64,000 nt of DNA from an uncultured Candidatus Saccharibacteria bacterium. GTDB taxonomy: Bacteria; Patescibacteriota; Minisyncoccia; Phycocordibacterales; Zambryskibacteraceae. The stretch covers positions 84,754 to 148,753 of the forward strand of contig CAZOQP010000001.1 in the NCBI GenBank assembly GCA_964582295.1, given 5' to 3'. Position 1 is the first letter of the stretch. Every line of letters starts with the position of its first letter. Shown piece by piece: positions 22,476-52,485 of the stretch. The position numbers and the translations under genes were made by a program. Below the pieces are notes generated by a model that saw nothing but the letters and a program-made list of their open reading frames with translations, made no database searches and was not told the origin of the DNA.

Positions 22476-22481
22476 TATCTG

Positions 22482-22552
22482 TGCGGGACGGGAGAATCGG
22501 ACTCCCACCTACAGTTTGGAAAACTGTCGTTCTACCACTAAACTAGTCCCGC
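22482..22552 (-). tRNA. tRNA-Gly (anticodon TCC)
   Basis: GCGGGAC acceptor stem, anticodon loop TTTCCAA, T-arm GGGAGTCCGATTCTCCC. Confidence 0.85.
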
Positions 22553-22574
22553 TTTATGAGCTTTTGAATTATAA

Positions 22575-22862: not shown

Positions 22863-22867
22863 TTTGT

Positions 22868-22938
22868 GCGGCCAGGGAGAATCGGACTCCCATCTCGTCC
22901 TTGGCAAGGACGCGTTCTACCACTAAACCATGGCCGCG
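22868..22938 (-). tRNA. tRNA-Gly (anticodon GCC)
   Basis: GCGGCCA acceptor stem, anticodon loop TTGCCAA, T-arm GGGAGTCCGATTCTCCC. Confidence 0.85.
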
Positions 22939-22987
22939 CATTAAGAACTCTAGCAAAAAAGCACTCCCCTCTCAATTATCAATTATG

Positions 22988-23058
22988 TCGGGCTGCTGGG
23001 AATCGAACCCAGTTCTTGCGAACCCGAATCGCATATACTACCGGTGTACTACAGCCCG
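22988..23058 (-). tRNA. tRNA-Pro (anticodon CGG)
   Basis: CGGGCTG acceptor stem, anticodon stem-loop TGCGA-TTCGGGT-TCGCA, T-arm CTGGGTTCGATTCCCAG. Confidence 0.8.
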
Positions 23059-23144
23059 TCTGTAGAACCTTCAGAATATATCACACAGGCCTTAAATAAA
23101 CATAAATTGAGAGTTTATCGGCTGTAACGTATGATGGCTCACAC

Positions 23145-23216
23145 GCACCCGTGGTGAAATGGATATCACAACGGTCTTCGGAACCGTTGTTGTGGGTTCG
23201 AATCCTGCCGGGTGCA
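23145..23216 (+). tRNA. tRNA-Arg (anticodon TCG)
   Basis: GCACCCG acceptor stem, anticodon stem-loop ACGGT-CTTCGGA-ACCGT, GGGTTCGAATCC T-loop region. Confidence 0.75.
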
Positions 23217-23237
23217 CACGCGAGAAAAACGCACTAG

Positions 23238-23308
23238 CGGGATGTAGTATAGCGGCAGTATTTACCCATGGGGTGGGTAAGGCCCGGGTTCAATTCCCGG
23301 CATCCCGA
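23238..23308 (+). tRNA. tRNA-Pro (anticodon GGG)
   Basis: CGGGATG acceptor stem, anticodon stem-loop TACCC-ATGGGGT-GGGTA, T-arm CCGGGTTCAATTCCCGG. Confidence 0.8.
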
Positions 23309-23358
23309 AATATCTAATTCCGTGCGCTCATGCCAAAACTTTGGCACTATGTAGGCAG

Positions 23359-23429
23359 CGGGACGTAGTATAGTGGCAGTATATATGCTTTGGGAGCATA
23401 GGGTCCGAGTTCGATTCTCGGCGTCCCGA
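23359..23429 (+). tRNA. tRNA-Pro (anticodon TGG)
   Basis: CGGGACG acceptor stem, anticodon stem-loop TATGC-TTTGGGA-GCATA, T-arm CCGAGTTCGATTCTCGG. Confidence 0.8.
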
Positions 23430-29048: not shown

Positions 29049-29969
29049 CTATTTGCGTCTTCCGTGGAACTTCTTATGTATTTCTTTCAAATGACTGTCA
29101 GTAAAGTGTGTATATATTTGTGTAGTGGAAATACTGGCATGGCCGAGAAGCATCTGAACGGAACGCAGGTCGGCCCCGTTCGAGAGTAGATCCGTGGCAA
29201 ACATGTGCCGCAAGACATGCGGAGTAACCTTCTTAGAGATACCGGCTTGGATTGCTCTATCCTTGATAATACGTTCAACGGAGCGACTTCCCAAGGGGCC
29301 TGCTACTTTCCCCATTTGAGTAATCCTCACTAGAAGCGCTTCTTCCATGTCCTTGCGAGCTTTCAAATAATCTTTGATAGCTTTGAGTGCCCCCTCGGAG
29401 ATAAAGACCACGCGGATTTTGCCACCCTTACCCTTGATAGGGAACTCGCCAGCCTGGAAATCAATATCTGTCGTGAGCGAACAAAGCTCGGAAACTCGCA
29501 AGCCGGTAGAAAAGAGCAATTCAAGAATTACTCGGTCCCGTAAATTCTTAATATCATCTCCTTTAGGTGAGTCCATGAGCCGGGCAAGCTCGGCGGGAGA
29601 GATGAGATCTAGATGTCTCTCGCTAACCTTAGCGAGGTCGATGTATTCTGCTGCTAGAGTCTTCACTCCCTGTTTGGCTAAGTACTTGAGGAAGGCCCTA
29701 AGAGCAATGAGGTAGTAGTTCTGGGTCTTCCTAGACAGAGTTTCATTGTGTGGCGACTTGTGGCCCGTAGATTGCCTGTTGAGCCAGAGGCGGAATTCCC
29801 GCACTGAATCAGCAGAAATATCCGAAGCATTCTTTATTTTGGAATGTTCCAGAAACCTTGAAAGGTACCTGTCGTAATTTTCAATAGTTTTGAGACTCCG
29901 GCCCTTTTCTATTTCCGTATATTCCAGAAATTGGCGCTTTAATTTTTCAAGTTCGGTTTGAGATGTCAT
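29049..29969 (-). CDS. xerC: tyrosine site-specific recombinase XerC/XerD family
   Basis: C-terminal catalytic region HVLRHMFATDLLSNGADLRSVQMLLGHASISTTQIYTH, carrying the RHRY-type residues. Confidence 0.8.
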   Translation of the reverse strand: MTSQTELEKLKRQFLEYTEIEKGRSLKTIENYDRYLSRFLEHSKIKNASDISADSVREFRLWLNRQSTGHKSPHNETLSRKTQNYYLIALRAFLKYLAKQGVKTLAAEYIDLAKVSERHLDLISPAELARLMDSPKGDDIKNLRDRVILELLFSTGLRVSELCSLTTDIDFQAGEFPIKGKGGKIRVVFISEGALKAIKDYLKARKDMEEALLVRITQMGKVAGPLGSRSVERIIKDRAIQAGISKKVTPHVLRHMFATDLLSNGADLRSVQMLLGHASISTTQIYTHFTDSHLKEIHKKFHGRRK

Positions 29970-37924: not shown

Positions 37925-38719
37925 ATGAAACATTTTCCTAAAAAATACTTGGGTCAGCATTTTTTGAGATCAGACCCAGCTCTGAAAGCGATCGCGGATG
38001 CGGGAGAGGTGGGCAGGCAGGATGTTGTTCTTGAAATAGGGCCGGGTGAAGGAGCTCTCACTCTAAAACTTTTGCAAAAAGCCGGGAAAGTGTTCGCTGT
38101 CGAGAAAGATATTCAGTTGGTGGCCATGCTCCAGGAAAAATTTTCAACGGAAATAAATAACGGCGAACTGGAAGTTTTACATACTGATATACGTAATTTT
38201 GATCCCGCCAAAGAATTCACAGATAAGGAATACAAGCTCATTGCCAACATTCCGTATTACATAACAGGGGAAATATTGAGAATGTTTTTGGAAACAAAAA
38301 AGCAGCCGGAAAAAATGGTTCTTCTGATACAGAAAGAAGTGGCTCAAAGGATCATGGCACGCGACGGAAAAGAAAGCATTCTCTCTATTTCTATAAAAGC
38401 GTACGGAACTCCTAAAATAATAAAAACGGTTAAGGCCGGTTCATTCCATCCGGCGCCAAAAGTTGATTCGGCGATACTTGCCATTGAAAAAATATCCAAA
38501 GACAAATTTCACGCGGCCGGAGTATCCGAAAAAAGTTTTTTTGAAGTCGTCAAAAAAGGGTTCTCGAGCAAACGCAAAAAACTTTCATCAAATATGGATG
38601 TCGGAAAAGAAAAATGGACGGAGATTGCTGGGAAATTAAAAATCCGAGAGGACATCCGCGCGGAAAATGTTTCCCTTGAGGAATGGTTTGAAATAACCTC
38701 TCTTATCTTAAAAGCCTAA
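37925..38719 (+). CDS. rsmA: 16S rRNA (adenine1518/1519-N6)-dimethyltransferase
   Basis: KKYLGQHFL...VLEIGPGEGALT, the KsgA/Dim1 family SAM motif. Confidence 0.9.
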   Translation: MKHFPKKYLGQHFLRSDPALKAIADAGEVGRQDVVLEIGPGEGALTLKLLQKAGKVFAVEKDIQLVAMLQEKFSTEINNGELEVLHTDIRNFDPAKEFTDKEYKLIANIPYYITGEILRMFLETKKQPEKMVLLIQKEVAQRIMARDGKESILSISIKAYGTPKIIKTVKAGSFHPAPKVDSAILAIEKISKDKFHAAGVSEKSFFEVVKKGFSSKRKKLSSNMDVGKEKWTEIAGKLKIREDIRAENVSLEEWFEITSLILKA

Positions 38720-39133
38720 GAATGCGGGGCGACTGGTACCAACCCGGAACATAACCCCGAGATCGGGAAGAGGGACGCAGGAGGTAAGTAGACCAAATAG
38801 ACCAGTAGGCACCAAAATTAAACAAGTGTTAGTGATAGGAAAATAATCCCCCAGGTACCAAATGCCTGGGATGCCTGCCAGTCCATGTGCGTAAGGAATA
38901 CTTGGGCCTGTGGGCACAGGTCTATATGTGAGGGCCCCTCCAGGAATAAACTTGTTCCCCCCGAGATAAAGTAGCTCATATTGAACCCAAATACCGCCAG
39001 AACATGTACATGGAACGATTTTGGTCGCAAATCCACCGAAAGGTAGAGCAAGAGAGGTCGCAAAAGTGGACACAGGGAGGAGGCATAACACGCAAATGCA
39101 CAAAAAACGTATGAATGAGGGGCGAAATATCAT
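38708..39133 (-). CDS. small Cys/Gly/Pro-rich secreted hydrophobic protein, hypothetical
   Basis: Signal-like N-terminus (FLCICVLCLLPVSTFA) and a second hydrophobic segment. Fills an otherwise 450-nt gap. Could be spurious. Confidence 0.3.
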   Translation of the reverse strand: MIFRPSFIRFLCICVLCLLPVSTFATSLALPFGGFATKIVPCTCSGGIWVQYELLYLGGNKFIPGGALTYRPVPTGPSIPYAHGLAGIPGIWYLGDYFPITNTCLILVPTGLFGLLTSCVPLPDLGVMFRVGTSRPAFLGF

Positions 39134-39175: not shown

Positions 39176-39991
39176 ATGAAGAACCTCCTTTCAGACAAGA
39201 TAACGGTGGCACTTTCCGCATCAATACTCATTTTGAGCGGAAGCACCGGCTATGCGATAGCACAAAGCCCCCGTTCCGACACCTCTCCTTTGGGGATCCG
39301 GACCGAAAATGAAAAGCAGGACATTGGAAGCCTTATAAGCGCAGAAAACGTGGAAAACTCGGTAAGCGATAACTCATCGCTTTTCACTCCAAGCACTTTC
39401 ACGGCACGTTTCGGCCAAAACGCTTTTTCCCGATTTGTACAAGCATCTCAAAGAGAGGAGGAGGTAAATGCTTCCGACATCATGGAGATCTCTAACAAGG
39501 TGGCTTCAGATCTGGCAGCAAACAGCAATATTAAGTTTACAGAATACTCCTTGGTAGACCTCTCCATAATTTCTGCTCCTACCACAAGCGACTGGCAGAA
39601 ATTCATTTCTGACATAAACACAATACGCAGCAAATATGCTTCGATATTCCGCTCTTCCACAAATTTAGGAGGTCTGGCGACACTTGGCCCAAATAATATC
39701 CCCTCAATACTCAAGGCCGGAGATCTATATTCTCAAATGGCCGAGGAGCTTTTGACAACCCCGGTGCCCGCGCCGGCCTTACAAAGTTTTTTAAAGTTGG
39801 TAAATGCTTATTCAAAAGCGGCTGCAGGACTACCCGCGTTTAAATATCTATCTGATGATCCAGTAAGAGTGATCCCCGGCCTAAGTTTGTATTCGGAAAG
39901 CCAAGACGATGAGTCCGCAGCGCTTAGTGAAATCCAGGTTCTTCTTATAAGCAATGGTATAATTTTTTCTGGGACATACCTCGCTCCCTAA
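39176..39991 (+). CDS. secreted hypothetical protein (first gene of T4SS-like operon)
   Basis: Signal peptide MKNLLSDKITVALSASILILSGSTGYAIAQ. No known motifs. Confidence 0.4.
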   Translation: MKNLLSDKITVALSASILILSGSTGYAIAQSPRSDTSPLGIRTENEKQDIGSLISAENVENSVSDNSSLFTPSTFTARFGQNAFSRFVQASQREEEVNASDIMEISNKVASDLAANSNIKFTEYSLVDLSIISAPTTSDWQKFISDINTIRSKYASIFRSSTNLGGLATLGPNNIPSILKAGDLYSQMAEELLTTPVPAPALQSFLKLVNAYSKAAAGLPAFKYLSDDPVRVIPGLSLYSESQDDESAALSEIQVLLISNGIIFSGTYLAP

Positions 39992-39994
39992 AGC

Positions 39995-41812
39995 ATGAAA
40001 AAGAAAATTTTACTTTTTATACTCTTATTCTCTATATTGGGAAGTCTTTTAATTCCATCAACTACCCAGGCCCAGGGAATAAATATCCCACCACTTACCG
40101 GACTTAGCGAAACTATTCCTCCTGTACCCGTAGGAGATGCTGCCATAAGGAAAAAAGAGGTGGGCTTTACTATTTTTGGAATAGACACGGGTATTTCATG
40201 GGACAGCATAGTGATTATGCTTGGCAGGGCGATGCTAGACAACATATTTGACAGTATGACCGACTGGGTGAACCGCGGATTTGAAGGCAATCCGACTTTC
40301 GCAACAGATCTTAATGATTATTTGTCTAAGGTTGGGGATGTTGTGATAGGAGACGCCTTGAATGAAATAACCAACGGCTTCGCCTGTGAGCCTTTTCGCC
40401 TGGAGATAAGAGCTGCCATAGAAAGAGACTTCGGGGCCGGGGGGCAAGGCAAAATTTTCAAAAACTCCTGCACTTTGAGCGAGATAGAAGCGAACGTGGA
40501 TAATTTTTTGGATGGAAGTTTTGTTGATGGCGGGTGGCCGGCATGGTTCAGGATAACCCAAGTTGATGAGAACAATCCTTACGGCTCATATTTAGAAGCA
40601 AGAGGCGCCATCACTGCAAGTATTGAAGGAGCGCGAAGTGTGGAGCTTGCTAAATTAAGCTGGAGCCAGGGATTCATAGATACACGTGAATGCCTGGAAT
40701 ATCAGACGACCGTAATGATGACAGCGGCAGGTCCTGTTCCTGTTCCTACACAGATATGTAATAAATGGGGGCCGGTAAAAACCCCCGGTGCAGTTATTGC
40801 AAACCAGGTAAATAAACAATTCGGAGCATCAACAGATCAGTTAATAACTGCAGACGAATTGGACGAATTTTTCGCGGCTGTCGTAAACCAGCTCCAGAAC
40901 ATGGTGTTCAGTAGAGATGGAATATTCCGTACGGGAGGAGCACCAAGAATTTCAGGAGCGGCAGGAGATTACAATAGACAGCCGTTCGATCTAGGAACAG
41001 GAGCTTGCACAGTCGAACCCCCCGCACCGATCGTGGTAGGTAGTGACACCACATGGAGAATAACAACTGCCGTAAACGGATCGAATCCTCAATATGTATG
41101 GAGTGGTACGGATATGAGTTCCACCACCAACGCATCCTCGCTAAAGGTTTCTTACTCAATACCCGGCGACAAAAATATGTCGGTTACCCTTTCATATGAC
41201 GAGATCGATCAATCTCAAAGTCCTGATCCAACAACTGGTCAGTATCCGACAACACGAAAAACCCAGAATGTTTCTTGCCCCACCATTCTCGTAACCCCAC
41301 CACCTCTTGCTATTTCATGCATATTAGCTCCACTGGTTATAAACTCTCCTTCCTCTACAAATCATCGTATCTCCCCTACAGATCAAAATGACAGCGTGTG
41401 GGATGGCCCGAATGATCCGGATAATATGTATGCGAGGTACAGGAACGGCACCCTTACGGAAACTGATAAAAAATATCTGGTGGTCTGGCAGGTCACTATC
41501 TCGGGCGGCTCAGGCAAACTTGACCGTATTACTGTCGAAAAGGATAGCGGTATCAATATTGGTGTGAACAGCCAGCTCCCTCCATATCTTCCGAGCCTTA
41601 ATTACTCCCCGGCAGCCGGTATCCCTGTTCAAGGCAACCCCCCATCTATCACCTTAAGACTGCCGGCCTGGTATGAAGAGAGTAATATATTTGCAAGACA
41701 GAACTTAAATGTTGATAAAACCTTAAGAATAAGCGTTCTTGATTCAGATCAGAGCATTGCGAACGGCTTTGTGAACCAATCCTGCCAATCCGTTAAAGTA
41801 ATAGGCCCATAG
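39995..41812 (+). CDS. secreted hypothetical protein, 605 aa
   Basis: Signal peptide MKKKILLFILLFSILGSLLIPSTTQAQG. Gap of 4 nt from the upstream gene. Confidence 0.4.
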   Translation: MKKKILLFILLFSILGSLLIPSTTQAQGINIPPLTGLSETIPPVPVGDAAIRKKEVGFTIFGIDTGISWDSIVIMLGRAMLDNIFDSMTDWVNRGFEGNPTFATDLNDYLSKVGDVVIGDALNEITNGFACEPFRLEIRAAIERDFGAGGQGKIFKNSCTLSEIEANVDNFLDGSFVDGGWPAWFRITQVDENNPYGSYLEARGAITASIEGARSVELAKLSWSQGFIDTRECLEYQTTVMMTAAGPVPVPTQICNKWGPVKTPGAVIANQVNKQFGASTDQLITADELDEFFAAVVNQLQNMVFSRDGIFRTGGAPRISGAAGDYNRQPFDLGTGACTVEPPAPIVVGSDTTWRITTAVNGSNPQYVWSGTDMSSTTNASSLKVSYSIPGDKNMSVTLSYDEIDQSQSPDPTTGQYPTTRKTQNVSCPTILVTPPPLAISCILAPLVINSPSSTNHRISPTDQNDSVWDGPNDPDNMYARYRNGTLTETDKKYLVVWQVTISGGSGKLDRITVEKDSGINIGVNSQLPPYLPSLNYSPAAGIPVQGNPPSITLRLPAWYEESNIFARQNLNVDKTLRISVLDSDQSIANGFVNQSCQSVKVIGP

Positions 41813-41818
41813 GACAAT

Positions 41819-44149
41819 TTGTGTGGACGGCGCGTCCAATTTTTGTCCTTTATCGGATACTATAGGAGTATGAGTTCTTCATGGAAAATACTAATTTCCT
41901 GCTTTTTGGTGTTTTCAATGGCAACAATAGTTTTCCTTCCTTTACCCGCCCACGCTCTATCTCTATTCGGTTTTGCTGCGGGGGCTATCGAGAGTGCGGT
42001 CGCGACACTTGCAAACATGGTTTTGAAGTTCTTTGCTTTCCTGTTGGGAATATGCGCTGTACTACTAGATTACTCCTTGAATCTTACGGTAGTACAGCTA
42101 AGTGAAAACCTCAAAAGTCTTACTGCTATAAACGAAACATGGTCCACCATAAGAGACTTAATAAACCTTTCATTCATATTCATTCTCCTCTTCGCAGCAA
42201 TACGCACAATTCTTGGGCTGGAATCTCCTGTAAAAGTAATAAAAAATATTGTACTCGCTGCGCTCTTCATAAATTTTTCCATGTTCTTCACGCGCGTGAT
42301 GATAGACGCCTCAAACTCTGTAGCCCTGTTCTTTTATGAACGTATAACTTCGGCAATTGTTGACACGAGTGGTTTGGGATCCGCAGCAAATATGTTATTG
42401 AGCGAGCGAGGGAAAACTTTAAGCGCCCTGTATGCCAATCCGCTTAGACTGGGAACTTTATACAAAGCGGCAGACGGAACCGCATCCCAGGTCGTAAATT
42501 CCACAAACATATACACTATCGGACTTATGGGCTCTATGATGCTCGCTTTAGTGGCTTTCGTATTTTTAACCATAGCCATAATGTTTGTTATCCGCTATGC
42601 CGCACTTATTGTTCTTCTGATATTTTCGCCGCTTGGTTTCATAAGCAAGGATCTGCCGATGATAGGGGAGTACAACCAGCAATGGTGGGGTATGCTCAAA
42701 TCACAACTCTTGTTTCCGCCCGTGTTCATGATAATGACCTGGATAACGATCAAGGTCATAAACTCGCCAGGCATTCTGGGGATATGCAAGGACCCGGGAG
42801 ATTGTAATTTTAGAGGCGCTTTGGCAGCAAGCGGGGATATTCCTGATGTGAGTGGAGTGGGCCTCATGATAAATTTTGCGGTAATAATGGCGCTCATCGT
42901 GATGTCTCTTCTTATATCAATTCAGACCGCATCCAAGGGAGCGGAGGCATTTTCAGGTCTCTACAAAAAGGCCAGCAAATGGGCAGGAGGTGCCATGTTT
43001 GGCGGCGCATCTCTTATCGGAAGACAGACGTTTGGTAGGGGATCGGAGATGCTGAAAAATACCAATATGTACACGAAGTGGGAGGCGAAATCTAAGGACA
43101 GTATGATGGCCCGTCTTGCTCTGAACACGGTAGACCAGACCAGGACCGGTTCCATGGACACGCGTGGTTCAAAGTTTGGAAAAGCATTTGCCGGGATGAC
43201 GGGCCTTGATGCGGGAGAAGCTGTGGGACAAGGTGGATTTGAAGCAGATAGAAAGGCCTACAAAGAATATTTTGCAAGACCTGGCTCAGAAGCTAAAAGG
43301 GAGAGGGACGAAAGAGCGGCTAAAGCTACGGCCGTGCTCGACATTGAGGCAGCTCAGGATCTTGATCCGGCTCAAATTGATGCAATAAGAGCTCTCGTAG
43401 GACCTCGAACACCCGACCAGCAGGAAATGGTAGATAAGATGGACAAAATGGAAAAAGCCCTTGCACGCATGACGGATAAGGAGGTGGAGGCAATAGTATC
43501 AAGCAACAAGAAACTTCTTGATAAAGAAGCATTTGCTCAAAAATTAAGCGTTCAACAACTGGAAACTATAAATAAGAGCGATAAATTCTCGGATGAAGAA
43601 AAGAGGGTCTTCAACGACAACCGCTTCAAGCAAATATCCTCAATTATTGAGGCCGCCCAAAGGACTGGAACACCAATTAGTTCTACTGATGCCAAAAAGA
43701 TTGCTGGACTTACAGATAAAGAACTTGAATACGTACCTTCAGACATCATCAACAATAAAAACTTCGTCGGAGCGTTGCGATCTTCACATATGGACTACGT
43801 AAAGAAGAGCACCAAATTCACATCTTCACAGAAAGATGCGATTAAGAATTCTCGCCAGGACGCTCTATTAGGTAGAGTCCAAACTACTCCGTCAGAAATA
43901 GCTAAATTAGATCCAAAAGACGTGGCCAGTCTATTTGACCGGGGAGTACTTACGGATCCTATATATCTAGAACATCTTAATCCTAAAAAGTTAAAGAGTA
44001 TTGGTAAGGAAATAGACGATGAGAGGAAAATAGATCAGATAAAAGCCGCAATTACTGCAGCACCTGGAGGCCCGGCAGGAGGCCCTCCAACAGGAATAGA
44101 TAGATTACAGACATGGCAAGGAAGCCCGGACTATCAAAATAATTTCTAA
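41819..44149 (+). CDS. VirB6/TrbL-like (TcpH/ConG-type) polytopic membrane protein with large C-terminal hydrophilic coiled-coil domain
   Basis: About 8 predicted TM helices in the first ~400 aa. A ~370-aa charged C-terminal region ends in a Pro/Gly-rich tail. This architecture is typical of Gram-positive T4SS VirB6 homologs. Confidence 0.5.
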   Translation: MCGRRVQFLSFIGYYRSMSSSWKILISCFLVFSMATIVFLPLPAHALSLFGFAAGAIESAVATLANMVLKFFAFLLGICAVLLDYSLNLTVVQLSENLKSLTAINETWSTIRDLINLSFIFILLFAAIRTILGLESPVKVIKNIVLAALFINFSMFFTRVMIDASNSVALFFYERITSAIVDTSGLGSAANMLLSERGKTLSALYANPLRLGTLYKAADGTASQVVNSTNIYTIGLMGSMMLALVAFVFLTIAIMFVIRYAALIVLLIFSPLGFISKDLPMIGEYNQQWWGMLKSQLLFPPVFMIMTWITIKVINSPGILGICKDPGDCNFRGALAASGDIPDVSGVGLMINFAVIMALIVMSLLISIQTASKGAEAFSGLYKKASKWAGGAMFGGASLIGRQTFGRGSEMLKNTNMYTKWEAKSKDSMMARLALNTVDQTRTGSMDTRGSKFGKAFAGMTGLDAGEAVGQGGFEADRKAYKEYFARPGSEAKRERDERAAKATAVLDIEAAQDLDPAQIDAIRALVGPRTPDQQEMVDKMDKMEKALARMTDKEVEAIVSSNKKLLDKEAFAQKLSVQQLETINKSDKFSDEEKRVFNDNRFKQISSIIEAAQRTGTPISSTDAKKIAGLTDKELEYVPSDIINNKNFVGALRSSHMDYVKKSTKFTSSQKDAIKNSRQDALLGRVQTTPSEIAKLDPKDVASLFDRGVLTDPIYLEHLNPKKLKSIGKEIDDERKIDQIKAAITAAPGGPAGGPPTGIDRLQTWQGSPDYQNNF

Positions 44150-44157
44150 AATAATCC

Positions 44158-44787
44158 ATGATAATCTCCAAAGAAAAAAGACGAGCTGCATACCAACAAC
44201 TTCCTGAAAAAATCAGAGAATATATTTCATCTGGCGGCAGTATAGAAAAAACAGATACCCTAGCGCAAAAATTTTCCTTAACCCCAAATCAGGACATTGT
44301 CCTTGATGACGAGATCACTCTTGTTCTTATGGGACTTGAAACGAAAGACGATATGCTTGCATCACTTCAGGAAAAGACGGGGATTGGAAAGAACAAGTGC
44401 CTGGAAATAATAATGGAAGCTGATAAATTTATTTTTCAGCAATTCAAACAGTGGATACCAAAACAAAATCAGGGGGCAATTAAACTAAATGCCCTAGAAC
44501 AATTGCCTCAACAACTGAAAACAATAAAGCTCCCAGATGGAGCAGCGGGTTCTTTGCCGGACCACGAAGAGATAATTAAAAATCCTATCGTAATGCCATC
44601 CAATCCTGTAATTGCAGCTGCACCAGTACCCCAAAAACCTGAAGCATCTAAGAATCTGCCTCCGATAGATAATCTTTCATGGGAAGAGAGGAAAAAGCGT
44701 GCTGAAGAAGCCCTGAAAAACATAGCGCCTACGGAAAACAAAAAGTACCCAGGCGGAGCAGATCCCTACAGGGAGCCAATCTCGTAA
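44158..44787 (+). CDS. hypothetical soluble protein in T4SS-like operon
   Basis: ORF only, tightly packed in the operon. Confidence 0.4.
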   Translation: MIISKEKRRAAYQQLPEKIREYISSGGSIEKTDTLAQKFSLTPNQDIVLDDEITLVLMGLETKDDMLASLQEKTGIGKNKCLEIIMEADKFIFQQFKQWIPKQNQGAIKLNALEQLPQQLKTIKLPDGAAGSLPDHEEIIKNPIVMPSNPVIAAAPVPQKPEASKNLPPIDNLSWEERKKRAEEALKNIAPTENKKYPGGADPYREPIS

Positions 44788-44802
44788 GCAGAGCTTACGA
44801 GA

Positions 44803-45261
44803 TTGGCGGGTTATAATATCTTTATGCGTTTTCAAGTACCACAGTTCATTGAAGTTGAAGACAAGATATTCGGACCCTTCACGTTCAAACAATTCGTTTA
44901 TCTTGCAGGTGGGGCAGGGATGATAGCTATTGCCTTCACGTTTCTTCCTAAGTTCTTGGCTTTTCTTGTAGCCCTTCCTATTGCAGGACTTGCGGCAGCC
45001 CTTACTTTTTACAAAGTGAATAACCGTCCTTTCATTTACACACTGGAGGCATACCTCAACTATCTGCTCACTAAAAAACTTTTCGTATGGAAAACCAGGC
45101 AAAGGACGGCGCAAGCCCATCCTTCGGCCGACACAAATTCTGAAAGACCGCAGGTGCAAGTGCCTAAAATTTCAGGGAGCAGACTTCGCGACCTTACATG
45201 GGATCTGAGCGTTAAAGGACGGACCGACATAAATCAAACAAAAGACACGGATACCGTTTAA
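44803..45261 (+). CDS. VirB3-like / TcpE-like small 2-TM protein
   Basis: FGPFTFKQFVYLAGGAGMIAIAFTFLPKFLAFLVALPIAGLAAALTFY. Two TM helices, directly upstream of the VirB4 genes as in Gram-positive T4SS. Confidence 0.4.
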   Translation: MAGYNIFMRFQVPQFIEVEDKIFGPFTFKQFVYLAGGAGMIAIAFTFLPKFLAFLVALPIAGLAAALTFYKVNNRPFIYTLEAYLNYLLTKKLFVWKTRQRTAQAHPSADTNSERPQVQVPKISGSRLRDLTWDLSVKGRTDINQTKDTDTV

Positions 45262-45291
45262 TACTATAATTACGGCTGGAGAATATTCACA

Positions 45292-45924
45292 ATGCCAATA
45301 TCCGCACAATCTACACAAGACTTCGTACCTATAAAAGACGTGCGCGACGGAGTCGTCATTTTAAAAGACGGAGGATTGAGAAGTATCCTGATGACATCAT
45401 CTGTCAATTTTTCCCTGAAGTCGGAGGACGAGAAGACCGCCATCATTTATCAGTTCCAGGATTTTCTGAATTCCCTTGATTTCTCAGTGCAAATACTGAT
45501 GCAGTCCCGCAAGCACGACATCAGACCTTACTTGGCTCTCCTTGAAGGCCGCAAAAAAGAGCAGATGAACGATCTTTTGAAGATCCAAATACAGGAATAC
45601 ATAGAGTTCATAAAAACTTTTACAGAACGCCAGAACATAATGACGAAAAGTTTTTTCGTGGTAGTGCCCTATACTCCGAATGCCCTTAATAACTCCAATT
45701 TCATGCAGAAAGTCATGCCTGGAAAAGGAACACCCACCCAAAAGAAAGAAGGGAAATTTGAAGAGGACGTCGTTCAGCTTGATCAGCGCCTCTCTGTTGT
45801 AATGCAGGGGCTTTCGCGCTGCGGCTTGCGAGCAGTTCGCCTTGGCACAGAAGAGGTAATCGAGCTTTTCTACAAAGTTTTCAACCCCGGGGAAACAGAG
45901 AAGCCGATCCAGATGCAATCATAA
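45292..45924 (+). CDS. VirB4-family N-terminal domain protein (separate ORF)
   Basis: FVPIKDVRDGVVILKDGGLRSILMTSSVNFSLKSEDEKTAIIYQFQDFLNSL resembles the N-terminal region of Gram-positive VirB4/TrsE/ConE ATPases. Ends with TAA 2 nt before the next ATG, in a different frame. Confidence 0.45.
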   Translation: MPISAQSTQDFVPIKDVRDGVVILKDGGLRSILMTSSVNFSLKSEDEKTAIIYQFQDFLNSLDFSVQILMQSRKHDIRPYLALLEGRKKEQMNDLLKIQIQEYIEFIKTFTERQNIMTKSFFVVVPYTPNALNNSNFMQKVMPGKGTPTQKKEGKFEEDVVQLDQRLSVVMQGLSRCGLRAVRLGTEEVIELFYKVFNPGETEKPIQMQS

Positions 45925-45926
45925 AT

Positions 45927-47765
45927 ATGTCTTTCCTAGATATTTTCAAATCAAAAAATAAAGAGGGGAATGCACCAGCGCCCGGCAATATTCTTCCTAA
46001 AGAAGTGTACGACTCAAGTGTGCTTGACCTTAAAGACATCATCGCACCAAGCGCTCTTAAGATAGGCCAGAAGCATCTTGATCTCGGAGACAAAGTGGTT
46101 AGAAGTTTTTTCGTAATTTCTTATCCGCGCTTTCTTGCAGAAGGATGGTTCGCCCCCATCATCAATCTGGACAAGGTTTTTGACGTTTCCATATTCGTAC
46201 ACCCAGCTGAAACCTCAACCGTATTAAGGCAATTCCAAAAGAAAGTGGCTGAAGTCCAAAGCCAGATACACGAAAGGGAGGAGAAGGGCCTGGTTCGCGA
46301 TCCTATGCTTGATGTGGCTTACCAGGACCTTGAAAATCTCCGCGATCAGCTTCAGCAGGCGCAGGAACGCCTCTTTGATGTCGGCCTTTACATCTCTATT
46401 TACGCGGACAATGAATCAGAGCTAGACAAAATAGAATCCGAGATGAAATCCATCCTTGAAGCGAAGATGGTGTATATTAAGCCCGCACTTTTCCAGCAGA
46501 ATGACGGCTTCGCTTCCTCTCTTCCTATCTGCGAAGATGCACTCAAAGTAAACCAGAAGCTCAATTCTTCGCCTTTATCATCTCTTTTCCCGTTCATTTC
46601 CTTTGACCTCACATCAGACCGCGGCGTACTTTACGGAATAAACCGCCACAATTCATCCCTCGTCTTGTTTGATCGCTTCTCTCTTGAAAACTACAACTCC
46701 ATCACCTTCGCAAAATCCGGTGCCGGAAAATCTTATGCGACCAAGCTTGAAATATTGCGCTCCCTTATGTTCGAGACCGATGTCATTGTCATTGATCCGG
46801 AGCGTGAATACGAATACCTGGCAGAAGCCGTGGGTGGGCGCTACTTCAACATTTCCCTCAATTCGGAGCACCACATAAACCCCTTTGAATTGCCGCTTCC
46901 CGGGCCTGATGAATCGGCTGCAAGCGTTTTGCGTTCAAACATTGTGAATCTGGTGGGGCTTTTCCGACTAATGCTCGGAGGACTTACCCCAGAAGAGGAT
47001 GCTCTTATAGACAGAGCATTAAGCGAAACATATGCCCTCAAAGACATCACTCCCGATTCCGATTTCAGAAATATAGAGCCACCACTTCTTTCAGACTTTG
47101 AGCTGGTGCTTTCAGGGCTTGAGGGAGGAGAATCTCTTGCACAGCGCCTTTCCAAATACACCAAAGGAACTTGGGCTGGCTTCATCAACCGCCCTTCTAA
47201 TGTGGATATCAACAAAAAATTCGTGGTCTTTTCTCTCCGCGATATGGAAGATGAACTGAAGCCTATTGCCATGTACATCGTGACCCACTTCATATGGAGC
47301 GCCGTCAGAAAGGAGTTGAAGAAACGCCTGCTTGTCATAGACGAGGCATGGTGGATGATGAAATCAGAAGACACAGCATCTTTCCTTTTGAACATGGCAA
47401 AACGTGGCAGAAAATATTTCCTGGGGCTTGCAACCATCACCCAAGACGTTGACGACTTCCTGAAATCGCCCTACGGAACGCCTATTATCACAAACTCGTC
47501 CATTCAAATACTTTTAAAACAATCCCCGACGGCAATCGACCGTCTTCAGGAGGTCTTCAATCTGACAGATGAAGAAAAATATCTCCTTCTTGAATCAGGG
47601 GTAGGAGAGGGCATTTTCTTCGCAGGTCTCAAGCATGTCGCCATAAAAATAATCGCCTCCTACACAGAAGACCAGATAATCACTTCCGACCCATCACAGC
47701 TCCTCGCTATCGCAAAATCAAAACAGGAAGCTAAAAATACAAATGAAGGAACGGCGATTCTCTAA
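45927..47765 (+). CDS. virB4: type IV secretion VirB4-family ATPase
   Basis: YPRFLAEGW N-domain motif, Walker A AKSGAGKSY, Walker B LLVIDEAWWMM (the VirB4 DEAW motif), and the C-terminal ATPase core. Confidence 0.8.
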   Translation: MSFLDIFKSKNKEGNAPAPGNILPKEVYDSSVLDLKDIIAPSALKIGQKHLDLGDKVVRSFFVISYPRFLAEGWFAPIINLDKVFDVSIFVHPAETSTVLRQFQKKVAEVQSQIHEREEKGLVRDPMLDVAYQDLENLRDQLQQAQERLFDVGLYISIYADNESELDKIESEMKSILEAKMVYIKPALFQQNDGFASSLPICEDALKVNQKLNSSPLSSLFPFISFDLTSDRGVLYGINRHNSSLVLFDRFSLENYNSITFAKSGAGKSYATKLEILRSLMFETDVIVIDPEREYEYLAEAVGGRYFNISLNSEHHINPFELPLPGPDESAASVLRSNIVNLVGLFRLMLGGLTPEEDALIDRALSETYALKDITPDSDFRNIEPPLLSDFELVLSGLEGGESLAQRLSKYTKGTWAGFINRPSNVDINKKFVVFSLRDMEDELKPIAMYIVTHFIWSAVRKELKKRLLVIDEAWWMMKSEDTASFLLNMAKRGRKYFLGLATITQDVDDFLKSPYGTPIITNSSIQILLKQSPTAIDRLQEVFNLTDEEKYLLLESGVGEGIFFAGLKHVAIKIIASYTEDQIITSDPSQLLAIAKSKQEAKNTNEGTAIL

Positions 47766-48102
47766 AAATACCAGGAGGATACTTTTTACCGCCGCCATCA
47801 TCCTTGAGCTTGCTCAATTCTCCGTACAAGCGCTTCCTGTAGTCGGGCAGGTAATGGGTTCAGTAATTGGAGGAGTATTTTTTGCTTTTTCTTTTATAGT
47901 GGCAAAAGTTCACGGCATCAAATTCGTAAAGCCGAAAAAGGTTTTAGGGCTGGGTGTCGTTACTTTTATTGAACTCATGCCCCTCATAGGCGCTCTGCCC
48001 GGATGGACCATATATGTGTGGAGATTAGTTGCAGATAACAAGAAAAACACAGAGCCACCTGTGGGGGAAAAGACGGCGGCGCAAGAAACAAACAGGATAT
48101 AA
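47743..48102 (+). CDS. small 3-TM membrane protein in T4SS-like operon
   Basis: Hydrophobic helices ILFTAAIILELAQF, VIGGVFFAFSFIVA, LGVVTFIELMPLIGALPGW. Overlaps the virB4 3' end by 23 nt. Confidence 0.4.
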   Translation: MKERRFSKNTRRILFTAAIILELAQFSVQALPVVGQVMGSVIGGVFFAFSFIVAKVHGIKFVKPKKVLGLGVVTFIELMPLIGALPGWTIYVWRLVADNKKNTEPPVGEKTAAQETNRI

Positions 48103-48109
48103 TAGAAAT

Positions 48110-49111
48110 ATGAGATCGCTCTTCACTTTAGGCGCGTGCCTCTTCATATTTTTTTCATCGTCTGTAAATGCCAACGCCCAGATTGATGGGGCAACCATCA
48201 AAACCATAAGAGAGAATGGTATAACTCTTTCCGCCCGGCCGGAATTCCCTAAACCCGGGGAAACCGTAGTGGTTTCGCTTTCCGCCACTTCAGTAGATTT
48301 AGATAGCGCCACCATCACGTGGTTCGTAAACGAGAGAGTGATAGTTAAAGGTATAGGGGAAAAACAAGTGAGCATATCCGCTCCTTCGGCAGGAACTATA
48401 ACTTCCGTGAGGGTTTCCATATCAAGCGGAGGATTCATATACGAAAAAAGTACCACTGTAAATGGGGCCGGGGTTTCTCTTATATGGGAGGCCCGCTCCT
48501 ATGTTCCGCCTCTTTTCTACGGCAAAGCGCTCCCTACCCGCGGTTCTTTCATTGTGTTGCAGGCCATTCCGCATTTCAAAAGCGGGGGCGTATCCGTCAG
48601 TCCTCAAAATCTTGTCTTTACCTGGAAACAGGATGGGGCTGTCATTCAAAACCGTTCCGGCTACGGAAAAGATTCTTTCAACTTCATGAACGACAGTTTC
48701 AAGGACACAACAACGATAGAGGTTTCGGCCAAAACTCTTGATGATAGATTTACCGCGTCTGATTCAATAACCATCACGCGCCAAAACCCTCGCATAGGCC
48801 TTTACCGCTTTTCTCTTCTTTACGGCAGTCTTTTGCAAGAAGAAGAATCTAACCAGAACCTGGTGGGGGAAAGGGAGATCGGAATCCGTGCTGTGCCATG
48901 GTACTCTCCCATTAATCCGTCTTTCCGTTTTCAAGTCCCGAATCTGAATTGGATGGTGGGGAAAACCAGTGCCAGCAATAACGGCCTTACGTATCTAATG
49001 ATAGAGAACCGAAATGGAACGGCCAATACGGGAACTGTTTCGGTATCCATCAAAGAACCAAAGCATTTTGGTGAAGACAAAGTTTCTTCGGTCAATCTGC
49101 AATTTGAGTAA
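48110..49111 (+). CDS. secreted beta-rich hypothetical protein
   Basis: ORF 48029..49111. Likely start MRSLFTLGACLFIFFSSSVNANAQ (signal peptide) at 48110. Confidence 0.4.
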   Translation: MRSLFTLGACLFIFFSSSVNANAQIDGATIKTIRENGITLSARPEFPKPGETVVVSLSATSVDLDSATITWFVNERVIVKGIGEKQVSISAPSAGTITSVRVSISSGGFIYEKSTTVNGAGVSLIWEARSYVPPLFYGKALPTRGSFIVLQAIPHFKSGGVSVSPQNLVFTWKQDGAVIQNRSGYGKDSFNFMNDSFKDTTTIEVSAKTLDDRFTASDSITITRQNPRIGLYRFSLLYGSLLQEEESNQNLVGEREIGIRAVPWYSPINPSFRFQVPNLNWMVGKTSASNNGLTYLMIENRNGTANTGTVSVSIKEPKHFGEDKVSSVNLQFE

Positions 49112-49112
49112 T

Positions 49113-50081
49113 ATGAAAAAATTACATACTAAAATACTTATCTCTTTCGTACTACTGTCTTTAGTGTTCGCGTTCACCACGGCAGTGCAGGCACAAAATA
49201 CTCCGGAGCCTATAAAATATGTACCCCTTGAACAAGTGCCGGGTTTAACTGTAGGATCGGGAGAAACTGCTTACATTGACCTTGCTCAATATCTTCCAAA
49301 TCTAATTAAGTTGGCCATAGGCCTTGCCGCGGCGCTTTCTGTTATTTACATAATCGTAGGAGGGTTCCAGTATCTTTCAACGGACGCTATTTCAGGCAAA
49401 AGCGAGGGGAAGGAAAAAATACAGAATGCTCTCTGGGGTTTGGCTCTTGCCATCGGCTCGTGGGTGATACTCAATACTATTAACCCGGCCTTGGTAAATA
49501 TAAATTTGGATATTCAGCCAACAGCTCCATTAGCCGCCCCATCTCCTGGAGAAACTATTGGGGGCGGCCCGGGAGATTCATGCCCGCGTATGCAGGGGGG
49601 CAGTACCGAACCATGTATATGTGTTGATTGTGTGGACGGTCCAATTGGAGTTAGATTCAAATCGGCAGGGCATAAAATGAATGCCAGCCTCGCCACCAAA
49701 TTACAAAGGGCAATGGAAGGTTTTTTCCTTGAAGGACCCACTTCAGCAGATGAACCTGTCCCAACAAAGATACCTATAGAGTGGTGGGTAACTGAAGCTT
49801 GGGCCCCCAGATCAGCACATCAAAGCAGATGCCACTACAATGGTGCATGTATTGATCTCAATACTATCCCCGGGTTCACATCCGGCTCTACCCCAACAAG
49901 AGTGCTCGCCGAAAAACTTAATATAATAGCTGATGAGCTTAAAAGTGAGGGCCTTAGCGTTGTAATTTTTGAAGTGAAGACACAGCAAGACATGGACCGT
50001 TTAACTGGAGTGGGAGTAAGAAGAGATTTCTTACGTTTAAATCCAGGGGCATCGGAATCTCATTTCCATATTGGACTGTAA
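49113..50081 (+). CDS. VirB2/TrbC-like pilin domain fused to Cys-rich C-terminal extracellular domain
   Basis: Signal peptide, then two hydrophobic helices (LIKLAIGLAAALSVIYIIVGGFQYL; LWGLALAIGSWVILNTINPAL) separated by a charged loop (SGKSEGKEKIQNA). C-terminal ~200 aa carry CPRMQGGSTEPCICVDCVDG...RCHYNGACID. Start at MKKLHTK (49113). Confidence 0.45.
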   Translation: MKKLHTKILISFVLLSLVFAFTTAVQAQNTPEPIKYVPLEQVPGLTVGSGETAYIDLAQYLPNLIKLAIGLAAALSVIYIIVGGFQYLSTDAISGKSEGKEKIQNALWGLALAIGSWVILNTINPALVNINLDIQPTAPLAAPSPGETIGGGPGDSCPRMQGGSTEPCICVDCVDGPIGVRFKSAGHKMNASLATKLQRAMEGFFLEGPTSADEPVPTKIPIEWWVTEAWAPRSAHQSRCHYNGACIDLNTIPGFTSGSTPTRVLAEKLNIIADELKSEGLSVVIFEVKTQQDMDRLTGVGVRRDFLRLNPGASESHFHIGL

Positions 50082-50087
50082 ATTATC

Positions 50088-51284
50088 GTGAACAAAAAAC
50101 TTATAATTTTAATTCTTGTTGTGATCCTCATCGGGGGAGGAATTTCGTTTTTCTTTCTCTCTAAAAATACGACGACGGCACCCGCTGTAGTTACCGGGAC
50201 TGACAGTCCTTTTGGTGTGGGGAGAGCGGGGGAAAGGGCGGGCGAGCCGGCAGAGCAAAATAATAATGAGAATACTAATTCAATATCCGTAAATCAGGAC
50301 GGAGTGGTCATAAAGAAAATAGTTTCAGAGCCGGTAGCCGGTTTCATATTTATAGGCAAAGGAGCTTCAACTACTATCCGGTATGCCGAACGCGGGAGCG
50401 GACGCGTGAATGATATTTCTCTAGGTACCACTCCTGAAACCCAAAAAGTAACAGGTGACACCCAATCTCGCATCGTATCTGCTGTATTCCTAGAACAAGG
50501 GAAAGGTCTTTTGAGGTTCAAAGAAACCGATACGGGATCAGTTACCGCCTTGTATTCAAAAGTAGCCACATCCTCAGTAAGTAAGGAGATATCAGGAACT
50601 ATTTTAGACCTTGATGTCACAGCGGATGGGAATAAAGTCATATTCGTATTTGAAGACGAACTTGGCTCTGCCATAACAACCGCGAACGGGGACGGGACAG
50701 GCGCCCAAGTGGCATGGAGAAGCTCTCTTCAGGAATGGCTTGTGCAAGGTCTTAATAAAAATGTCATCTCTATTCAGACAAAGTCCGCAAGGGGTATGCC
50801 TGGATCAGCATTTATTATTTCGGGCGGCGCCTCCGAATTATATCTTTCAGGGCAAAGCGGTTTCAGAGCCATGGTAAGCCCAGACGGAATGTTCGCGGTC
50901 TTCAGCGACTATACAAACACGGCTTCGCCCGTGCAGATTTATGATAAAGAGGCGGAAGAAAAACGCGGACTATTTCTCAATACTCTTCCTGAAAAATGCG
51001 TGTGGTCCAATATAAAAGCAGACGGTCTTTATTGCATAGAATTCGCCGGACGGAACACTGGTCTTCCGGACATTTGGTACAGAGGAGAAATATTTTTGAA
51101 TGCAGGCAAAGTGTGGAGAATATCCGCCAAGACAAACATTGAAGAATCTTTGGCCGACCTCGGAAGCTTGAATGAAGCTATTGATGCGATAGAGCTTGGC
51201 TTATCTTCAGACGAACAGTGGCTCGGATTTATGAATAAAAGAGATTACTCTCTGTGGGTGATAGATCTCTCGGGAGCTAACTAG
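50088..51284 (+). CDS. membrane-anchored exported protein, beta-propeller-like, hypothetical
   Basis: N-terminal TM anchor (LIILILVVILIGGGISFFFL). TolB/WD40-like segments (VSPDGMFAVFSDY). Confidence 0.4.
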   Translation: MNKKLIILILVVILIGGGISFFFLSKNTTTAPAVVTGTDSPFGVGRAGERAGEPAEQNNNENTNSISVNQDGVVIKKIVSEPVAGFIFIGKGASTTIRYAERGSGRVNDISLGTTPETQKVTGDTQSRIVSAVFLEQGKGLLRFKETDTGSVTALYSKVATSSVSKEISGTILDLDVTADGNKVIFVFEDELGSAITTANGDGTGAQVAWRSSLQEWLVQGLNKNVISIQTKSARGMPGSAFIISGGASELYLSGQSGFRAMVSPDGMFAVFSDYTNTASPVQIYDKEAEEKRGLFLNTLPEKCVWSNIKADGLYCIEFAGRNTGLPDIWYRGEIFLNAGKVWRISAKTNIEESLADLGSLNEAIDAIELGLSSDEQWLGFMNKRDYSLWVIDLSGAN

Positions 51285-52008
51285 TCGCAACAGTTATATT
51301 TTGTCCGCCAGCTGGCGGAGCAAATTTTTTCTTTAGATAAAGATCCTGAATGATGGTTAAAATATTTGAAGTCGTCCAATAAAGACCAACTACGCCGGAT
51401 ATCTGCCACGACACAACGAAAGCAAGGATGGGGAATATCACTCTCATTTGGATTTTCATCATGCGCGCAAGCGCTTCGTTCTTGCCTCCTATATCCTGGG
51501 CCGCGCTTGAAAGATGTATCTGGATGTAGCTCGTAATACCTGCAAGGATAGCAAGGACGAGACTTTTCTCAGTAAGCACTGCTAGCCCTAAGAAAGACAT
51601 ATCTATAGCCGCAGGATACGGAATGAAGCTATACAGAAGGTCAGCATTAATAACAGGTAAACCGGACTGGACCAGAATGTAGTAGAGGCCGAAGATGATC
51701 GGTATCTGGAGAAAAAGAACCACGATGCCGGAGAATGGATTGGTTTTTGATTCCGAATAAACCTCCATTATTTTTTTTGCCTGCATTTCCTTATCGTTGG
51801 GGTACTCGGCTTTGATGGCTTCCATCTTCGGCTGGAGACGTTTCATTTCCATTTGCGAGCGATAAGCTTTTTTTGAAAGAGGGAAGAGTATGAGACGCAC
51901 TATAAAAGTGAAAATGATGACCAGAAATCCTGCATCAAGAGCCGGGAAGAGGTCCGCGAGAAGAATGAAGATGTTGTAGAGCGGCTGGGATATAAGGGTG
52001 CGGAACAT
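51277..52008 (-). CDS. yidC: membrane protein insertase YidC (short Gram-positive type)
   Basis: YidC/Oxa1 core helices. Position immediately downstream of rnpA. Confidence 0.85.
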   Translation of the reverse strand: MFRTLISQPLYNIFILLADLFPALDAGFLVIIFTFIVRLILFPLSKKAYRSQMEMKRLQPKMEAIKAEYPNDKEMQAKKIMEVYSESKTNPFSGIVVLFLQIPIIFGLYYILVQSGLPVINADLLYSFIPYPAAIDMSFLGLAVLTEKSLVLAILAGITSYIQIHLSSAAQDIGGKNEALARMMKIQMRVIFPILAFVVSWQISGVVGLYWTTSNILTIIQDLYLKKKFAPPAGGQNITVATS

Positions 52009-52015: not shown

Positions 52016-52351
52016 TTATGTATTTTTTACGGAAAGAAGTCCTGCGGAGCGGAGAAGATCTATTGCATCTTTCTCAAGAACTTCTCTTTCAGCACGGGAT
52101 TGTATGGAAAAGAAAATACGGGCGAGAGGAATATCTTTTTTCACGGAAGCGATGGCCCTATAGACGGCGCGCCTCATGCGATTCCTCGCCACTGCCGACT
52201 TTGCCACTTTTTTTGAAACGGAAACTCCGGCCTGAAGAACGTTTGCCGGAGAAACGTATTTCAAAAAAAGAACTTTTCCGCGTAAAGACCTGCCGCGTGA
52301 GACCACACTAAGGACATCTTTTCTCGACAGACGATTTTTCTTTGCGAGCAT
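52016..52351 (-). CDS. rnpA: ribonuclease P protein component
   Basis: KKNRLSRKDVLSVVSRGRSLRGKVLFLKY ... RNRMRRAVYRAI is the typical RnpA sequence. Confidence 0.85.
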   Translation of the reverse strand: MLAKKNRLSRKDVLSVVSRGRSLRGKVLFLKYVSPANVLQAGVSVSKKVAKSAVARNRMRRAVYRAIASVKKDIPLARIFFSIQSRAEREVLEKDAIDLLRSAGLLSVKNT

Positions 52352-52485
52352 TAGACGGAGAGGCTCTTTCTGCCCTTTCTCCTCCGGCGAAGGAGGGTTT
52401 TTCGGCCTCCGGGGGTTGCCTTGCGGGTCAAAAACCCGTGGCTTCGCTTTCTTTTTTTCTTTTTAGGCTGGTATGTCTGCGACAT
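52351..52485 (-). CDS. rpmH: 50S ribosomal protein L34
   Basis: Not in the ORF track (44 aa). Manual translation gives [44 protein letters not shown]. Its stop overlaps the rnpA start (TAATG). Confidence 0.85.

Follow-up and report, generated by a model that had tools for sequence, protein, structure and literature searches.

Eleven genes on the forward strand (g1-g11, positions 39176-51284) of the 64,000-nt stretch analysed here (the window, part of contig CAZOQP010000001.1) represent, with high confidence, the Patescibacteria type IV secretion system (T4SS). Taken together, the evidence is best explained by a T4SS that resides on the chromosome and most likely serves exchange in contact with a host cell. 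The system has already been published, and the core finding is a rediscovery. Quinonero-Coronel et al. (2025, Microb Genom 11:001409; PMC12102498) describe, for the Patescibacteria, a clade of VirB4 proteins related to MPF_FATA, with TrsD, PrgI/VirB3, VirB6 and VirB2-like pilins encoded near virB4, almost no relaxases, and a type IV coupling protein (T4CP) that is rarely adjacent. There the T4SS of the Paceibacteria adjoins dnaA, dnaN, rnpA, rpmH and ksgA, and a repurposed, non-conjugative role was proposed, for example the import of host macromolecules. According to Wang et al. (2023, Cell 186:4803; PMC10633639), genes SEML1_0006-0019 of Southlakia epibionticum were essential for epibiotic growth by transposon sequencing (Tn-seq), and this T4SS includes pilins and lacks coupling and relaxase proteins. 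Two reviews (PMC12857230, PMC11665869) treat the same system and call its role unknown. The present cluster shared with it VirB4, TrsD, PrgI/VirB3, a putative VirB6 and a VirB2-like pilin, the lack of an adjacent relaxase or T4CP, and the chromosomal neighbours. The core displayed no difference from the published system, and the nearest VirB4 relatives of g7 were all from Paceibacteria. One pilin gene was found here, whereas Saccharimonadia and Microgenomatia carry arrays of 2-11.

The product of g7 is a member of the VirB4 ATPase family, judged from its P-loop domain, its Walker motifs and its homology to a solved VirB4. It matched the Pfam families P-loop_TraG (2.1e-27), AAA_10 (5e-11) and DUF87. 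Its closest solved structure was VirB4 of Thermoanaerobacter (PDB 4ag5, 7.2e-42), with R388 TrwK behind at 1.2e-7. The motifs GAGKS and DEAW named in the first-pass annotation, which had been made from the sequence without database searches, were present as AKSGAGKS (Walker A) and LLVIDEAW (Walker B). PrgJ of plasmid pCF10 aligned with g7 from PrgJ residue 220 onwards, at 27-28% identity over ~560 residues. More than 8000 homologues were found; the top 120 had 80-91% identity, and the named sources were Paceibacterota, Parcubacteria, Zambryskibacteria or Patescibacteria group. The genome belongs to the Paceibacteria (Parcubacteria). A look-up of the exact g7 sequence gave no match. For comparison, one genome per species was scanned, which yielded 80 loci (L001-L080) with VirB4 identities of 76-91%.

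The missing N-terminal part of VirB4 was encoded separately. The g6 protein matched the NCBIfam families VirB4_plasma (2.2e-11), TrsD (1e-7) and CD1110 VirB4 (3e-6). Because the VirB4 profiles aligned with it at their N-terminal part only, and because it also belonged to the TrsD family, VirB4 is split into two genes, as had been read from the sequence before. This separation was conserved, with g6 present in 78 of the 80 loci (median identity 62%) and a median gap between g6 and g7 of 8.5 nt in 70 loci. PHROGs gave a single match among the cluster proteins, a spurious terminase on g6. The g5 protein, previously described as VirB3-like with two transmembrane (TM) segments, matched Pfam PrgI (PF12666) at 2.9e-10, scoring 41 bits where the cut-off is 27, and was detected in 77 of the 80 loci. 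Its family profile paired with pCF10 PrgI at E 1.2e-3 when the profiles were compared by hhalign with 12 single pCF10 proteins, a comparison of low power in which even this true pair reached a probability of only 19%.

The g3 protein had been called VirB6/TcpH-like and polytopic, with a large C-terminal domain. The topology stood: at least six hydrophobic segments were found in a TM domain of about residues 1-351, followed by a charged, coiled-coil-like C-terminal half, and an alternative TTG start was present at 41819. The resemblance to VirB6 is weak and was seen at the family level. Pfam TrbL/VirB6 matched 7 of 56 g3 orthologues (best 6e-5), and TrbL_4 matched one. In the same low-power comparison, the best partner of g3 was PrgH (E 9.4e-3, 114 columns, 4% probability). 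No match was found between the TM domain and plasmids by tblastn, and PDB profiles gave noise or Ig-like repeats for the g3 family. Of the two calls open to profile searches, VirB4 held, and VirB6 received weak support at the family level.

The N-terminal part of g10 is, by its sequence features, a VirB2-type pilin, with a signal peptide, a hairpin of two hydrophobic helices and a profile match. The T4SS_pilin profile matched 45 of 47 orthologues (best 3.8e-12), and the g10 of the window fell just below the cut-off. This part of the first-pass annotation was borne out; for the C-terminus, the reading as a Cys-rich domain without known identity was rejected on account of a LAS (Hedgehog/DD-peptidase) zinc-peptidase fold and metal-ligand motifs. 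The AlphaFold2 model, built from a 61-sequence alignment, had a mean predicted local distance difference test (pLDDT) score of 84. It consisted of the helical pilin hairpin, a disordered linker at residues 131-152 and, at the C-terminus, a domain whose pLDDT was >90. In this model the C-terminal domain is of the LAS fold. It carried the motifs H241-x6-D248 and H317-x-H319 and a conserved E228, and catalysis is predicted. A hidden Markov model (HMM) of the domain matched 29 of 58 orthologues. Pfam M15 families matched 2 of 47 orthologues at the sequence level, and PDB profiles yielded nothing beyond noise or Ig-like repeats for the g10 family.

In other orthologues and homologues (among L001-L080, and P0177, P0183 and P0185), the pilin carried Peptidase_M15_4, VanY, SLT, CHAP or NlpC/P60 domains instead. 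Since the same pilin bears VanY, SLT, CHAP or NlpC/P60 elsewhere, the wall-hydrolase module has been swapped among the Paceibacteria. Known LAS zinc peptidases include MepA, VanX, VanY, LdcB and the Hedgehog N-domain; the g10 domain differs from them in being tethered to a T4SS pilin. A pilin-hydrolase fusion is not mentioned in the available text of the 2025 paper (PMC12102498), and a literature text search found none elsewhere.

The cluster occupied a fixed place on the chromosome. All window proteins were compared with the 80 loci by tblastn, and wherever the contig was long enough the order was uvrD-ksgA-[g1..g11]-yidC-rnpA-dnaA-dnaN-PBP1. Even the fast-evolving slots of g1, g4 and g8 were filled at nearly every locus. 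No VirD4-like protein or relaxase was detected by Pfam among the 35 open reading frames (ORFs) of at least 120 aa in the window, and tblastn with the T4CP, relaxase and MobC of pCF10 gave no match in the window or within 10 kb on either side of any of the 80 loci. The fixed order in 80 species and the lack of a relaxase or coupling protein nearby indicated a resident machine rather than a conjugative element, in agreement with the first-pass annotation. The median identity in the 39 loci that contained all markers was 80% for VirB4, 60% for DnaA, 50% for KsgA, 44% for YidC and 43% for DnaN, a contrast between VirB4 and the other markers that is somewhat inflated, as the loci were picked as best VirB4 matches. 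The extracellular proteins were the least conserved, with a median identity of about 27-38%.

The other origin to be weighed is that the cluster is an integrative and conjugative element (ICE), or the decayed remnant of one, that came to lie near the origin by chance. VirB4, PrgI and TrsD are indeed homologous to conjugation proteins of the plasmids and ICEs of monoderms. In addition, a tyrosine recombinase was located 9 kb upstream, at 29049-29969 (-), although the window had been said to contain no integrase; this correction left the conclusion of a resident machine unchanged. The recombinase (306 aa, Phage_integrase Pfam 4e-43) was XerC/XerD-like in size and domain layout. It lay in housekeeping surroundings with five unrelated genes between it and the cluster, among them those of ComM, a LysM-M23 peptidase, UvrD and KsgA, and it is probably a housekeeping gene itself. 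Adjoining it was a 732-aa protein with a PG_binding_1 domain (26849-29047, -).

Judged by sequence, the locus had neither the relaxase, the T4CP and the border integrase nor the variable presence that mark a conjugative T4SS or ICE. An ordinary ICE was ruled out because no pCF10 T4CP, relaxase or MobC match was found at any locus. The base composition was uniform across the cluster, housekeeping genes stood directly on both sides of it in the same position and order in 80 species, and VirB4 was more conserved than DnaA, unlike in mobile elements. The reading as an ICE or its remnant was rejected on the fixed synteny, the lack of an adjacent relaxase or T4CP and the uniform composition, and we consider it highly improbable. 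The term origin-proximal applies here to the dnaA/dnaN/rpmH gene set only, because a DnaA-box scan of the window revealed no cluster of boxes (21 matches vs. 13 ± 4 expected) and the minimum of the cumulative GC skew fell at about 13-15 kb, away from dnaA (52.6 kb).

All eleven ORFs were present at the coordinates given by the first-pass annotation (Table 1). Better starts were found downstream for g3 (41870), g9 (48110) and g10 (49113). The starts of g8-g11 were those called in a public contig that encodes an identical g10 protein (119, 333, 322 and 398 aa for g8, g9, g10 and g11, respectively). Proteins identical to g2 and g10 were both encoded on an NCBI contig of 216 kb. With the revised starts the intergenic gaps ranged from -23 to +57 nt; the tight packing noted before was retained, with a range slightly wider than the 2-30 nt given there. 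The spacing of g1-g11 is compatible with a single operon. The gap between g2 and g3 (41813-41869) was 57 nt here vs. a median of 6 nt at the orthologous loci, and the hairpin in it might act as an attenuator within the cluster. As a whole, the scan for promoters and terminators stayed near the shuffled expectation, with 25 promoter-like sites vs. 20 ± 5 and 24 terminator-like sites vs. 14.3 ± 3.7. The upstream flank consisted of a LysM-M23 peptidase gene, uvrD and ksgA. Downstream, the rpmH-rnpA-yidC-dnaA neighbourhood was as described, and a class A penicillin-binding protein (PBP) gene followed beyond dnaN. Divergent from g1 lay an ORF of 141 aa (38708-39133, -) that encodes several Cys residues and a signal peptide and shares 12 nt with the 3' end of ksgA. 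This ORF was conserved in 11 of the 80 loci and had no family match.

Table 1. Coordinates and assignments of the cluster genes and of the genes on their downstream side.
Feature	Position	Strand	Description
g1	39176-39991	+	271 aa, signal or anchor segment at the N-terminus; family not recognised
g2	39995-41812	+	605-aa secreted protein; conserved N-domain of ~300 aa, then variable Ig-like C-terminal repeats
Terminator-like hairpin	41824-41838	+	In the g2-g3 gap; consensus scan only
g3	41870-44149	+	759-aa polytopic membrane protein, "extended VirB6"-like
g4	44158-44787	+	209-aa soluble protein; helical N-domain, Pro-rich linker, C-terminal DPYREP motif
g5	44803-45261	+	152 aa, two TM segments; PrgI family (VirB3 equivalent)
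g6	45292-45924	+	210-aa TrsD-like protein; free-standing VirB4 N-terminal domain
g7	45927-47765	+	612-aa VirB4-family ATPase
g8	47743-48102	+	119-aa membrane protein, 3-4 hydrophobic segments; 23-nt overlap with the end of virB4
g9	48110-49111	+	333-aa secreted protein built of Ig-like repeats
g10, N-terminal part	49113-49520	+	Signal peptide and VirB2/TrbC-like pilin helical hairpin (residues ~1-130)
g10, C-terminal part	49605-50081	+	Predicted Hedgehog/DD-peptidase (LAS) zinc-peptidase fold; disordered Pro/Gly-rich linker to the pilin
g11	50088-51284	+	398 aa; N-terminal TM anchor and probable TolB-like beta-propeller
yidC	51277-52008	-	Pfam 60KD_IMP 5e-42; convergent with g11
rnpA	52016-52351	-	Pfam Ribonuclease_P 2e-11
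rpmH	52351-52485	-	Reading frame found
dnaA, then dnaN	dnaA 52614-53954	+	DnaA and DnaN Pfam domains; beyond rpmH-rnpA-yidC

The accessory proteins evolved fast, and most of them had been thought to belong to no recognisable family. This applied to g1, g4, g8 and the N-domain of g2, whereas g9, g11 and the C-domain of g10 could be assigned. The first two proteins had been described as carrying signal peptides; one was seen in g2, and the N-terminus of g1 was a signal or anchor segment. Searches of Pfam, NCBIfam, PHROG and PDB left g1 without a match, and tblastn found it in 18 of the 80 loci. In all 46 of the 46 loci compared, its slot between ksgA and g2 held an ORF of 250-410 aa, which had one hydrophobic segment in almost every case. 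The N-domain of g2, with four conserved Cys (invariant at C131 and C159, near-invariant at C233 and C255), had no Pfam or PDB match. The g2 family was large, with 6382 cluster representatives at 50% identity and E ≤ 1e-3. Its C-terminal repeats matched Hoc of phage T4 at 7e-5, and some orthologues bore F5/8 type C or Bact_surface_Ig-like domains. The AlphaFold2 model of g2 (22 sequences) had a pLDDT <50 in the N-domain and of ~90 in the Ig-like domain at residues 338-445.

The soluble nature of g4 was reproduced in the relatives, where the slot between g3 and g5 held a soluble ORF in 62 of 62 loci; tblastn found g4 itself in 12 of the 80 only, reflecting fast divergence. It had no family match in Pfam, NCBIfam, PHROG or PDB profiles. 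The tail was conserved in spite of this divergence: D[PA][YF]RE, usually DPYREP, fell within the last 25 residues, 2-4 residues ahead of the stop, in 57 of the 62 loci, and one-residue variants occurred in four more. The motif D[PA][YF]RE occurred only 69 times in six frames of all loci, the copy of the window lying at ~44758-44775. From its sequence, the tail looks like a docking motif. No literature on the DPYREP motif was found.

For g8, earlier described as a small protein with three TM segments, the small membrane protein was confirmed, with three to four segments; it had no Pfam or NCBIfam match, and a small ORF with 1-6 hydrophobic segments followed virB4 in 61 of 78 loci. The g9 protein, noted before as secreted and beta-rich, was present in 78 of the 80 loci and weakly matched T4 Hoc. 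Among 51 of its orthologues, Pfam recognised BiPBP_C in 10, Ig_3 in four and PKD_3 in two. The g11 protein had one strong TM segment at residues 5-23. Its PDB profile matches were weak, with 12 of 13 being TolB (best E 0.013), and Pfam found PD40 in two, DPPIV_N in two and DUF5050 in one of 50 orthologues. It was detected in 61 of the 80 loci, a count limited mainly by contig ends. These signals are weak but consistent, and g11 is a probable TolB-like beta-propeller, which agrees with the membrane-anchored, propeller-like protein described at first.

Housekeeping genes made up the remainder of the window too, including those for triosephosphate isomerase, histidyl-tRNA synthetase, NusA, trigger factor, ClpP, RNase Y, the CCA enzyme, ComM and RuvB. 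Two PilB/T2SSE ATPases, of a type IV pilus or a type II secretion system, were encoded at the window ends (1459-3207 and 62128-63855, both -). Beside the first of them (3274-6346) were a 582-aa protein without family and one with Big_2. The genome, though otherwise reduced, encoded a full-length aromatic amino acid (histidine) ammonia-lyase (11488-13005, -; Pfam 3e-197). Six tRNA genes (two Gly, three Pro and one Arg) were located on both strands at 22481-23429, and tRNA-His (6622-6694) stood beside hisS.

Among characterised systems, the cluster resembled the MPF_FATA type (pCF10 Prg/Pcf and pGO1 Trs) in its PrgJ-related VirB4, its PrgI family protein and its TrsD-type detached N-domain, as in pGO1. 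The order of VirB6, VirB3, VirB4 and a hydrolase-bearing gene parallels prgH-prgI-prgJ-prgK. Unlike pCF10, it had no T4CP (PcfC), relaxase (PcfG), VirB8-like PrgL or LPXTG adhesin detectable by tblastn or hhalign. It possessed a pilin, which the Gram-positive systems lack, and its LAS-fold hydrolase was fused to this pilin, while the SLT/CHAP hydrolase PrgK is a protein of its own. Helicobacter pylori ComB (DNA uptake), Bordetella Ptl and Brucella VirB are likewise driven by VirB4 without a coupling protein or relaxase. However, these systems are diderm, have a VirB7/9/10 outer-membrane core and known substrates, and none of them is essential for growth.

The ComB precedent, a T4SS without relaxase or T4CP, raises the question of whether the cluster is a reverse T4SS that imports host or environmental DNA as a source of nucleotides. 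Patescibacteria are unable to make nucleotides and the growth of S. epibionticum does not depend on ComEC (PMC11665869; PMC12102498), which makes the T4SS a candidate route. However, Pfam and NCBIfam recognised no DNA-binding or nuclease component in the cluster, the type IV pilus ATPases and ComM in the window suggest a conventional competence route, and no experiment is known to tie any Patescibacteria T4SS to DNA. We regard DNA uptake as a rather unlikely role.

The pilin and the surface proteins bear on another proposal, in which the cluster is mainly an attachment organelle: a VirB2-like pilus with Ig-like and lectin-like proteins would keep the cell fixed to its host, and nothing would be translocated. 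The pilin was found in nearly all loci, g2 and g9 are Ig-like, and discoidin-type carbohydrate-binding domains occur on some g2 orthologues. Yet for adhesion, type IV pili are already encoded in the genome, and VirB6, VirB3 and a hyper-conserved VirB4 were kept. These form a translocation channel in other T4SSs, although pilus assembly requires VirB4 too. A purely adhesive function therefore seems unlikely.

The neighbourhood of yidC, PBP1, ksgA and dnaA in all relatives, the extreme conservation of VirB4 and the peptidoglycan peptidase fold fused to the pilin would also suit a housekeeping machine of envelope biogenesis or export, which would serve surface proteins of the cell itself or the remodelling of its wall, with no host as its target. 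No T4SS is known with such a role, and the fast-evolving extracellular parts with their swapped hydrolase and lectin domains look like an adaptation to varied external targets. We find this explanation improbable.

We prefer a resident T4SS for exchange in contact with a host. A role in transport at the host interface is reasonably likely, with import and export about equally so. In the proposed mechanism, VirB4 and the TrsD-like protein (g7/g6), PrgI (g5) and the VirB6-like g3 would form a translocon in the cytoplasmic membrane, and VirB4 would power the assembly of a short pilus or conduit across the cell's own wall. The Sec-exported pilin g10 would assemble into a filament or conduit outside the cell. 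Since pilin termini point outward in conjugative pili of solved structure, the fused g10 domain could lie on the filament's outer side. The tethered peptidase may cut peptide links of peptidoglycan, in the cell's own wall as a substitute for VirB1 and possibly in the host wall. The Ig-like, lectin-like and propeller proteins g2, g9 and g11 may be wall-spanning and host-contact parts, and the soluble g4, with its DPYREP tail, would dock on the cytoplasmic face. The apparatus would carry macromolecules from epibiont to host or the other way, and it would be non-conjugative.

We also propose, tentatively and as a possibility that may well fail, a specific Paceibacteria version of eleven genes. 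In it every pilin would bear a swappable hydrolase, which cuts the wall and could breach the host envelope, g4 would dock via DPYREP as an adaptor, plug or substrate, and g2 would be a host-contact part. The pilin-LAS fusion, the DPYREP protein and the g2, g9 and g11 families are not mentioned in the available text of the 2023 and 2025 papers. Together with the conservation of VirB4 above DnaA, the fusion, the DPYREP protein and the g2 family are details beyond these published descriptions, and they stand here as predictions from sequence and models.

Several points weigh against the preferred explanation. We know of no functional data for any Paceibacteria T4SS. Essentiality was shown in one Saccharibacterium only, whose accessory genes are different (PMC10633639). 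A coupling protein may be encoded elsewhere in the genome, as the search covered 64 kb, and VirD4 homologues are far from virB4 in many Patescibacteria (PMC12102498). The g3 of the window itself had no significant VirB6 match in Pfam. No VirB8-like protein was found when g1, g4, g8 and the other families were compared with PrgL and PDB at the sequence level; no match to PrgL, PrgK or PrgF was obtained by hhalign, and these are weak negatives given its low power. The last His of the H-x-H motif was Ser in 14 of 47 homologues of the g10 domain, and some copies of the peptidase may be inactive. VirB4 exceeded DnaA in identity in 39 of 39 loci, a figure inflated by the choice of best VirB4 matches. 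The operon status of g1-g11 was based on gene spacing alone.

The role of this T4SS is a major open question about how ultrasmall candidate phyla radiation (CPR) bacteria live on other cells. The window reveals no new kind of system; it adds a component list for the version of the Paceibacteria, a class with almost no cultured members. It also offers experimental handles, namely a predicted pilin-tethered peptidase that can be assayed, a DPYREP tail that may serve as bait, and a VirB4 that ranks with the lineage's most conserved proteins.

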